A stretch of 8,124 nucleotides of DNA from IMG/VR virus record IMGVR_UViG_2713896783_000023; one strand, 5' to 3'. This document shows, piece after piece, positions 1,422 to 1,942 of this stretch; positions within the stretch are counted from its first letter, which is position 1; every line of letters begins with the position of its first letter. Under the pieces are notes generated by a model that was given only the letters and a program-made list of their open reading frames with translations, was not told where the DNA came from and made no database searches. Position numbers and translations under genes: made by a program. Source of the stretch: a virus (taxonomy: Duplodnaviria; Heunggongvirae; Uroviricota; Caudoviricetes).

Positions 1422-1756
1422 ATTGATAACAGAGGGCGTTGCAGCGGGGTTGTCACTTAAGCGTATGGTCAACCTGACAACCCGGTGTCCTCAACGGGGA
1501 AAGAATAACCCCGCCATACTTACCGCCGCGCCATTTCGCGGATTGCCACAACCGGAAGCGCACGGTCGAATTAAATTTAACGACGGCTCTAAGGGAGAAG
1601 GACTTCGCCGTGCACTTTCGTGTTATGCCCTGACTTTTCAGGGATATATCCTTTCAGTAAACTGTCAGTGCCGGATTCTTATCTGTGTCCGGCGCACGAC
1701 CACACGTAGCAGCGTGTTGGTCTCCATTTTTAATTCAGCCCTTAATGGAGGATAAA

Positions 1757-1942
1757 ATGCCAAACAAACCATGCCCTGCCTGTAACGCTCTTTCTGGCTT
1801 TTTAGAGAAGGGCGGTTATTACATTTTTAACTGTCCAGAACATGTTGAATTTCATATATCAAAACTTGACAGTATCATTACAAAGCCAAATCAGTATCAG
1901 TCTGATTTACTGAATAAAGAGTTAAACGCCGCCCGAGATTAA
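1757..1942 (+). CDS. Small Cys-rich protein, possible zinc ribbon (61 aa; CPAC...x12...CPEH)
   Basis: ATG at 1757 with GGAGGA SD (1747-1752) at ideal spacing. In frame with ORF-track entry 1685..1942. Oriented antisense to the surrounding minus-strand operon. No family recognised. Confidence 0.4.
   Translation: MPNKPCPACNALSGFLEKGGYYIFNCPEHVEFHISKLDSIITKPNQYQSDLLNKELNAARD

Follow-up and report, generated by a model that had tools for sequence, protein, structure and literature searches.

A pseudoknotted RNA domain upstream of DicF and a truncated putative zinc-ribbon gene on the opposite strand in the dicBF operon of prophage Sp4

Results and discussion

DicF, which was among the first bacterial regulatory RNAs to be described, exerts control over cell division, metabolism and, in enterohaemorrhagic Escherichia coli (EHEC), virulence. 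The DNA analysed here (IMG/VR record IMGVR_UViG_2713896783_000023; 8,124 nucleotides, hereafter the window) matches prophage Sp4 of E. coli O157:H7 at 100% identity, and the part of interest, positions 1422-1942, lies between the last protein gene of the early-left operon and DicF. This stretch probably combines two unrelated elements on opposite strands: the leader of DicF, with a conserved RNA core that would act as a platform for biogenesis of the small RNA (sRNA), and a small convergent gene cassette. The original prediction, made from the sequence alone, had described a single structured non-coding stretch followed by an antisense open reading frame (ORF), and thereby merged two separate features whose halves differ in strand and in evolutionary distribution. 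Two points that it lacked are the truncation of the ORF by a nonsense change and the presence in the leader of a covariation-supported, pseudoknotted RNA domain common to phage P1.

The leader of DicF

Over positions 1422-1698, the window is approximately 90% identical to the ydfC-dicF intergenic region of E. coli K-12, and it is nearly identical over the 140 nt adjoining DicF. The leader was found in approximately 4400 of 5426 complete E. coli genomes, whereas 1699-1990 was complete in only 387, nearly all of them at 99% identity or above. Since the similarity to K-12 ends at 1697/1698 and the two distributions differ, the left part can be read as a K-12-type DicF leader and the right part as an insertion with an opposite-strand gene. 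In K-12, the ydfC-dicF stretch is a long untranslated region in which cleavage by RNase E generates the 5' end of DicF, the 3' end being made by an intrinsic terminator or by RNase III (PMC5069750, PMC9438474), and DicF forms of 53 and 72 nt have been reported (PMC5069750). Judged by this homology, 1422-1698 is the 5' leader of DicF in the DicA-repressed early-left (dicBF) operon of Sp4. One of the original suggestions, that the region is simply the processed DicF precursor, thus holds for 1422-1698, which lies directly 5' of DicF on the same strand and is homologous to the K-12 leader. The leader and its surroundings comprise the following features.

1369-1420, minus strand: DicF sRNA (seed and intrinsic terminator), Rfam RF00039, 76.9 bits against a gathering score of 48, E 3.8e-16
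1421-1437, minus strand: single-stranded A/U-rich linker GCCCUCUGUUAUCAAUA, separating helix P1 from the DicF 5' end, aligned to the annotated K-12 dicF start
1438-1552, minus strand: 115-nt RNA domain (the core), a four-way junction with a loop-loop pseudoknot, ending 17 nt before DicF
1553-1698, minus strand: remainder of the K-12-type leader, with a long local hairpin at about 1555-1618 that has a variable loop, and hairpins 1628-1643 and 1671-1692

The linker was unpaired in all folds and, by alignment, contains the position of the K-12 RNase E cleavage that makes the 5' end of DicF. The description of the stretch as non-coding was borne out: its only long ORF (110 residues, plus strand, 1423-1755) has no Pfam or PHROG match and carries no coding signal. 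Variable columns were spread 56/53/53 over its codon positions (p = 0.95), gaps were mostly not multiples of three, and the frame was open in only 26 of 78 variants, which together rule it out as a coding sequence.

Three perfect hairpins had been pointed out in the leader, namely CCGCG-6-CGCGG at 1526-1541, CCCTGA-cttt-TCAGGG at 1628-1643 and CCGGA-12-TCCGG at 1671-1692, and all three lie exactly at these positions. Perfect 5-bp hairpins are not more frequent than expected by chance (six, against 3.2 +/- 2.2 in shuffles, 14% of which reached six); the region as a whole folded better than shuffles on both strands, with z-scores of -3.6 and -3.4. As regards conservation, the first hairpin (helix P2 of the core) was paired in 96% over 78 variants, and the other two were kept in only 75-76% of cells. 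A likeness of the hairpin at 1628-1643 (CCCUGAAAAG...) to lambda boxB was set aside, as neither a boxA-like sequence nor an N-like gene was found nearby and the hairpin was 76% kept.

A conserved four-way junction with a pseudoknot

The core is built from five helical segments and a pseudoknot, all on the minus strand.

1545-1552 with 1438-1445, minus strand: helix P1
1537-1541 with 1526-1530, minus strand: helix P2, the first of the three hairpins above
1522-1525 with 1483-1486, minus strand: helix P3a
1509-1513 with 1495-1499, minus strand: helix P3b
1475-1482 with 1448-1455, minus strand: helix P4
1514-1519 with 1463-1468, minus strand: pseudoknot, GUAUGG in the internal loop of P3 with CCAUAC in the loop of P4

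The pairing was assessed in an alignment of 31-41 diverse copies from IMG/VR, GTDB genomes and phage records, with 500 shuffles and partners slid by 1-3 columns serving as controls for covariation. On a model-based alignment, the pairs were formed in 92.6% of cells, compared with 31-55% in the slid controls, and the MAFFT alignment gave a similar result. Ten pairs had changed on both sides, a number reached by 6 of the 500 shuffles, and the observed covariation score was reached by none of them. Compensatory changes from U-A to C-G were present in helix P4 (eight sequences) and in helix P3a (four sequences), one pseudoknot pair was UA in 32 sequences, CG in four and the intermediate UG in two, and helix P3b occurred as four different sequences, all able to pair. 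Helices P1 and P3b contain several G-U pairs that, on the plus strand, would become A-C mismatches. The core fold therefore belongs to the operon (minus) strand, and 1422-1698 is structured on this strand, the hairpins having originally been placed on the plus strand. The minimum free energy (MFE) structure predicted from the single sequence of the core reproduced the same junction.

A covariance model of the core, R1, scored 161.8 bits in the window, 122.8 in Salmonella phage F1055, 101.5 in phage P1 and 95.3 in Serratia symbiotica. Outside Enterobacterales, a genome-wide motif scan gave mostly chance matches, and true copies of the core were found only in Escherichia, Shigella, P1/P7-type elements, Salmonella phage F1055 and one Serratia symbiotica genome; the covariance model also retained mis-binned contigs of metagenome-assembled genomes. 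A search of Rfam 15 at E <= 10 over 1300-2150 returned only DicF and two matches at the chance level to small nucleolar RNAs, and no family for the core. A tRNA or tRNA-like identity was rejected on the grounds that ARAGORN found no genes in the window, that Rfam gave no match to tRNA or transfer-messenger RNA at E <= 10, and that the junction of about 115 nt has no T-loop motif. The pseudoknotted core is thus absent from Rfam, and no description of it was found in the literature searched, some older papers on dicF and P1 lying outside its coverage. The published descriptions of the long dicBF untranslated region (UTR) in this literature mention the untranslated region and the RNase E site and no conserved fold, and the term 'dicF-like' appears merely in passing; a Pas-sRNA preprint was set aside because it deals with other loci.

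Interchangeable modules behind the core

The same order recurs in all lineages examined, P1, P7 and F1055 among them: after the core comes a short single-stranded linker, then a seed-like segment that varies, and last a terminator with a U-tract. At least seven different seed-plus-terminator modules stand behind the one core in other locus groups, and the modules of P1 and F1055 differ too. Alternative modules in the place of DicF were observed in loci L008 (~540-600), L025, L034 (~5560-5630), L069 (~9640-9710), L096 and L179 (2636-2700). When the alternative modules were scored against Rfam, only one was recognised as DicF, with a weak match, and none was assigned to another family. They look like unannotated DicF-family sRNAs that differ in target specificity.

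A 97-nt piece of the core (1445-1541) has 76-81% identity to sequences of P1-family phage-plasmids. In the GenBank record of P1 (AF234172), a misc_feature at 68791-68892 is named 'dicF-like region'; it lies just downstream of the C1-controlled promoters P1ban/P2ban and the operator Op72, and upstream of tRNAs and the ban operon. In L179 (Salmonella phage F1055), a T-loop-like motif, GGTTCGATTCC, was seen at ~2400-2420 in a short hairpin about 90 nt upstream of the core, where ARAGORN calls no tRNA.

Proposed role of the core and alternative roles

We propose that the core serves in cis as a platform for sRNA biogenesis. Being a rigid and self-contained domain, it would shield the sRNA module behind it from the mRNA ahead, keep the A/U-rich linker unpaired and thus open to RNase E for making the 5' end of the sRNA, by analogy with the cuts of RNase E 3' of tRNAs, and give the upstream message a structured 3' end. 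One seed could in this way be exchanged for another behind the same platform. The mechanism is preferred because a fixed domain stands before interchangeable sRNA modules. A wider proposal, which we put forward only tentatively, is that the core represents a previously undescribed class of cis-acting phage RNA, a portable platform placed before an intrinsic terminator in lambdoid prophages and P1-family elements. If this is true, the core would guide RNase E to release interchangeable seeds, or drive read-through of the terminator, or both, and would thereby determine how much sRNA (DicF and its unannotated variants) is made relative to the products of the distal genes (dicB, recombination genes, ban). 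The occurrence of one conserved domain before several unannotated DicF-like seeds suggests that phages diversify their sRNA seeds behind a fixed platform, and the pseudoknotted domain upstream of DicF is a concrete, mutable element for studying both DicF biogenesis and terminator read-through.

The main alternative role, which appears unlikely, is that of a cis-acting processive antiterminator similar to put of phage HK022, which would let a fraction of the RNA polymerase through the following terminator. Genes beyond that terminator could then be expressed, namely dicB, ydfD and the exonuclease/xis/int genes in this prophage and the tRNAs together with the ban operon in P1. Such a function would fit the presence, in every lineage, of a strong hairpin and U-tract about 20-90 nt after the core, in mid-operon with distal genes beyond, and the position of the P1 core immediately after P1ban/P2ban is typical for an element of this kind. 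No N-like gene was recognised by Pfam or PHROG matches among the first genes of the operon, and nearly invariant loops together with a pseudoknot are what would be expected of a surface that binds a macromolecule. However, R1 matched nothing at E <= 10 when searched against the HK022 genome, and the identity of the core as a put homologue was rejected; moreover, the core in the window is about 1.5 kb from the operon promoter and does not adjoin it. Terminators of operon-internal sRNAs are, in addition, often simply leaky, and early termination with read-through has been described for DicF and SroC (PMC9438474).

It is still less probable that the core is the body of a longer RNA of about 170-190 nt (core, tail and terminator), for example a protein-binding or sponge RNA of which DicF is only the processed 3' piece. 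The P1 core begins about 30 nt past a promoter and ends at a terminator, which would give a discrete C1-repressed RNA, and the core, with its nearly invariant loops, is far better conserved than the seeds. On the other hand, the lambdoid prophages have no promoter-like site before the core on the operon strand, and the only species reported in the literature searched are the 53- and 72-nt forms of DicF (PMC5069750).

A putative zinc-ribbon gene on the opposite strand

To the right of the leader, the plus strand carries a gene that runs against the operon.

1699-1999, plus strand: small convergent gene cassette, between the last operon gene and the leader
1757-1942, plus strand: ORF ECs1061 / WP_001133046.1, 61 residues, a RefSeq coding sequence matching phrog_10133 at E 7e-48
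1943-1999, plus strand: in-frame remnant of the lost C-terminus, GRSGPLKILQRPTIVELD and a stop, 18 codons after the stop of the ORF, identical to full-length P0002/L135

The 61-residue ORF had been correctly placed, from ATG to TAA with the motif MPNKPCPAC...CPEH, and is already annotated (WP_001133046.1 / ECs_1061); an alternative in-frame ATG is present at 1745. Its TAA stop at 1940-1942 aligns with TCA (Ser) in P0002/L135, with the loss of 19 C-terminal residues compared to a length of 80. TAA was found in 12 of the 12 O157-type copies examined and TCA in one copy. By this alignment, the ORF is a TCA-to-TAA truncated allele of a putative zinc-ribbon protein of about 80 residues with the pattern CPxC...CPxH.

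Full-length relatives are P0002, an 80-residue copy in L005 and P0005 (91 residues). The L005 copy is 78% identical at the nucleotide level and keeps the frame over 80 codons, P0005 is 48% identical and retains CPxC...CPxH, and CPAC...CP(E/K/N)H is invariant in all five homologues. The frame is kept among diverged copies, with a ratio of nonsynonymous to synonymous substitution rates (dN/dS) of 0.16-0.18 in frame against 0.8-1.7 in shifted frames. From these substitution patterns, the ORF belongs to a real protein-coding family under purifying selection. The family is rare: it forms two 90% clusters among 5.8 billion proteins and has four representatives among 1.84 billion, eight near-identical loci occur in IMG/VR, and a tblastn search gave no match in 50,697 phage records. 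No Pfam family matched the ORF.

The AlphaFold2 (AF2) model of the full-length allele, with a mean predicted local distance difference test (pLDDT) score of 74, has four strands and a C-terminal helix. Foldseek searches against PDB and BFVD gave nothing significant, the best PDB match being a small zinc-finger protein at E 0.87, and a sequence search of PDB gave only a marginal zinc-finger match (E 0.009). Membership of the ORF and its neighbours in a defence system was rejected, PADLOC being negative, and ECs1061 is not mentioned in the literature searched. Two large proteins, P0003 (1964 residues) and P0004 (1166 residues), match the ORF in 8-11 repeated stretches at E 7e-15 and 4e-11, respectively, which suggests that the zinc-ribbon unit is also found, tandemly repeated, within large proteins. 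The 91-residue relative is found in the same convergent position in another lambdoid prophage of the YdaS/YdaT type, one without the RNA core, and the zinc-ribbon gene is therefore independent of DicF. It is best regarded as a rare passenger, truncated in the O157 lineage, which mainly shows that this operon slot accepts opposite-strand genes.

The 5' module of the opposite-strand gene

The ORF is preceded by a structured module that includes part of the region first described as terminator-like.

1669-1756, plus strand: conserved 5' module, with hairpin 1670-1693, bulged hairpin 1698-1722 and then a pairing against the Shine-Dalgarno sequence (anti-SD)
1722-1727 with 1745-1750, plus strand: anti-SD pairing of CUCCAU with AUGGAG, which can sequester the Shine-Dalgarno sequence GGAGGA and has the T5 in its loop

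The module folds into three hairpins with an MFE of -33.5 kcal/mol (z -3.51), which none of 200 shuffles matched, and 1669-1770 is conserved before different ORFs. Thus, in other dicBF prophages the zinc-ribbon protein is replaced by WP_001133037.1 (69 residues; L006/L007 1560-1769), which shares the 5' UTR and the first four codons (MPNK). WP_001133037.1 was also seen to have a C-terminal motif, DKLNxxL...GxxGP, in common with the zinc-ribbon protein, and a different N-terminal half. An analogous anti-SD pairing of different sequence is present in L131, the locus of the 91-residue relative, and is not significant there.

The bulged stem (1698-1722), the T5 (1727-1731) and GGAGGA (1747-1752) were all located as first described, and the terminator-like character given to stem and T5 did not hold. 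The terminator scan does not call them, the T-run starts 5 nt past the stem, and it is not conserved, being interrupted in L135 (ATTCTCAA). The position of the T5 inside the loop that sequesters the Shine-Dalgarno sequence instead points to translational, not transcriptional, control. The ORF is probably a moron-like gene that is read against the lytic operon and whose translation this hairpin would hold down.

In L005, a 170-residue plus-strand gene (880-1432; coiled-coil N-terminus, CPKC...CLHC C-terminus) with a perfect TATAAT upstream was observed to precede the hairpin/T5 module and the 80-residue gene. The hairpin there lies between two plus-strand genes that form a two-gene opposite-strand cassette, and the 170-residue gene is absent from the window. 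The O157 arrangement may have lost the L005-type promoter, and the cassette may be decaying, as no promoter is recognisable in the window and the neighbouring operon gene is frameshifted.

The original prediction had offered two further readings of this part, an attenuator (hairpin 1698-1722 and T5) controlling the antisense ORF, or a plus-strand transcript acting as an antisense RNA to dicBF or the DicF precursor, and both are improbable. Stem, T-run, Shine-Dalgarno sequence and ATG are contiguous and kept as a module before different ORFs, the position of the L005 module between the 170- and 80-residue genes is one where an intergenic terminator or attenuator would make sense, a C to T variant of the stem in L135 keeps pairing only on the plus strand, and the operon mRNA would be complementary to whatever is transcribed from the plus strand. 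Against this stand the negative terminator scan with the displaced and, in L135, broken T-run, the alternative fold that places the T5 in the sequestering loop, the lack of an upstream plus-strand promoter in the window, and the fact that K-12 and most genomes have the DicF leader without the cassette. This last point also argues that the cassette is not part of DicF biogenesis. Of the first reading, a genuine opposite-strand gene with a structured 5' UTR stands, and attenuation falls because hairpin and T5 fail a simple definition of a terminator; for the second, nothing beyond geometry speaks in favour. Attenuation and antisense control are thus unsupported. Least credible is a chance ORF within a stretch, 1422-1942, that is untranslated operon RNA throughout: great rarity (two clusters, no tblastn match) and the lack of a Pfam family would fit it, but the in-frame dN/dS, the 48%-identical relative, the pLDDT of the model and the PHROG match all oppose it, and for the family it is rejected by dN/dS and the distant homologues.

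Points against the two-element reading

Several results weigh against the reading as a DicF leader with a biogenesis platform beside a small convergent gene cassette. On the side of the core, the domain alone is not thermodynamically exceptional (z -0.42), and independent covariation events are few, since the P1-like clade supplies much of the covariation. The 5' strand of helix P1 is absent from the natural variants L015, L052, L161 and L162, apparently functional phages, and the full junction is therefore not indispensable. On the side of the cassette, the window scan found no sigma-70-like promoter upstream of the ORF on the plus strand, the hairpin downstream of the ORF is not significant (z -0.32), and the function of the zinc-ribbon family cannot be inferred because the family is so rare. 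As the lost tail was modelled at low confidence, the truncated protein could still fold; in the model, the truncation leaves both the zinc ribbon and the helix in place, so the allele need not be inactive.

Operon context and additional observations

The other genes of the early-left operon within the window are listed below.

3599-4000, minus strand: DicA-like repressor, at the start of the early-left operon
3093-3571, minus strand: relBE pair (RelE/ParE-RelB toxin-antitoxin)
2660-2854, minus strand: DUF1391/YdfA, followed by YdfB
1980-2518, minus strand: last operon protein gene before the leader, frameshifted into ORFs of 129 residues (annotated, 2129-2518) and 50 residues (unannotated)
917-1105, minus strand: DicB (Pfam E 7e-39), followed by DUF1482/YdfD

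By BLASTP, residues 1-91 of the 129-residue ORF and the entire 50-residue ORF align to a 179-residue protein (L135) and a 186-residue protein (L005), and from these alignments the two ORFs are one frameshifted gene of 179 residues that is intact in L135 and L005. The 3' end of this gene overlaps the full-length zinc-ribbon ORF, the two being convergent. The PGAP name 'RNA-binding protein' of the L005 copy was not used, as it is backed by no Pfam or NCBIfam model. The RelE/ParE-RelB pair separates the DicA-like repressor gene from the promoter region of the dicBF-type operon, an insertion absent from this place in K-12 Qin.

On the minus strand, two 20-nt segments are complementary at 19 of 20 positions, one (1339-1358) directly 3' of the DicF terminator and the other (1122-1141) directly 5' of the dicB ribosome-binding site. 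The predicted duplex encloses the DicF-dicB spacer; it is a likely candidate for the RNase III substrate that yields the 72-nt form of DicF, and it could also occlude translation of dicB. Close by, a run of 50 N (1161-1210) lies between duplicated 28-mers (GATGCGGTGCCTGGTGCCTCCAGGTGAC) at 1133-1160 and 1211-1238. Complete O157 genomes are 78 bp shorter here, and the run is therefore a scaffolding artefact, not biology. Sp4 also encodes pchA (L136, Sakai Sp4, 33366-33680), a virulence regulator reported to be activated by DicF in EHEC, so that the regulator and one of its targets reside on one element.

Comparison with known systems

The closest counterpart is the leader within K-12 Qin's operon ydfABC-dicF-dicB-ydfD, with which the window shares the strand, the position relative to DicF and the identity of about 90% over 1422-1698. 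The order of the operon is also the same: DicA-like repressor, DUF1391/YdfA, YdfB, the gene in the ydfC position, leader, DicF, DicB and DUF1482/YdfD. The window differs in having the convergent cassette upstream of the leader, a different, frameshifted 179-residue gene in the ydfC position, and relBE beside the repressor.

The dicF-like region of P1 resembles the core here in its R1 score, in compensatory changes in P3, P4 and the pseudoknot, in the hairpin and U-tract that follow the core, and in lying on the same strand as the downstream genes. In contrast, it is promoter-proximal and not operon-internal, the sequence of helix P1 differs, the tail is short and is not DicF, and tRNA genes and the ban operon take the place of dicB downstream. 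The annotation of P1 names a similarity, and neither a structure nor a function.

The put RNAs of HK022 are comparable only in the way they work, as structured phage RNAs of an early operon that precede an intrinsic terminator in need of read-through. There is no homology in sequence or structure, the R1 search having covered the whole HK022 genome, and put consists of two stem-loops of about 70 nt, compared to a 115-nt four-way junction with a pseudoknot. On the opposite strand, the ORF resembles phrog_10133 and other small zinc-ribbon prophage hypotheticals (morons) in its knuckles CPAC and CPEH, its small size and its direction against the surrounding operon; it differs in that the allele is truncated and in that no promoter of its own, as a moron would have, was found.

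Finally, DicF has been grouped with operon-internal and 3'-side sRNAs that are released by RNase E (PMC9438474). With 3'ETS-leuZ, SroC and CpxQ, the arrangement in Sp4 shares a structured upstream RNA, an A/U-rich RNase E site, which in Sp4 would be the linker, and an sRNA that ends at an intrinsic terminator. The upstream structure here, however, is not a tRNA but a dedicated domain that is conserved across phage families and stands before interchangeable seeds.

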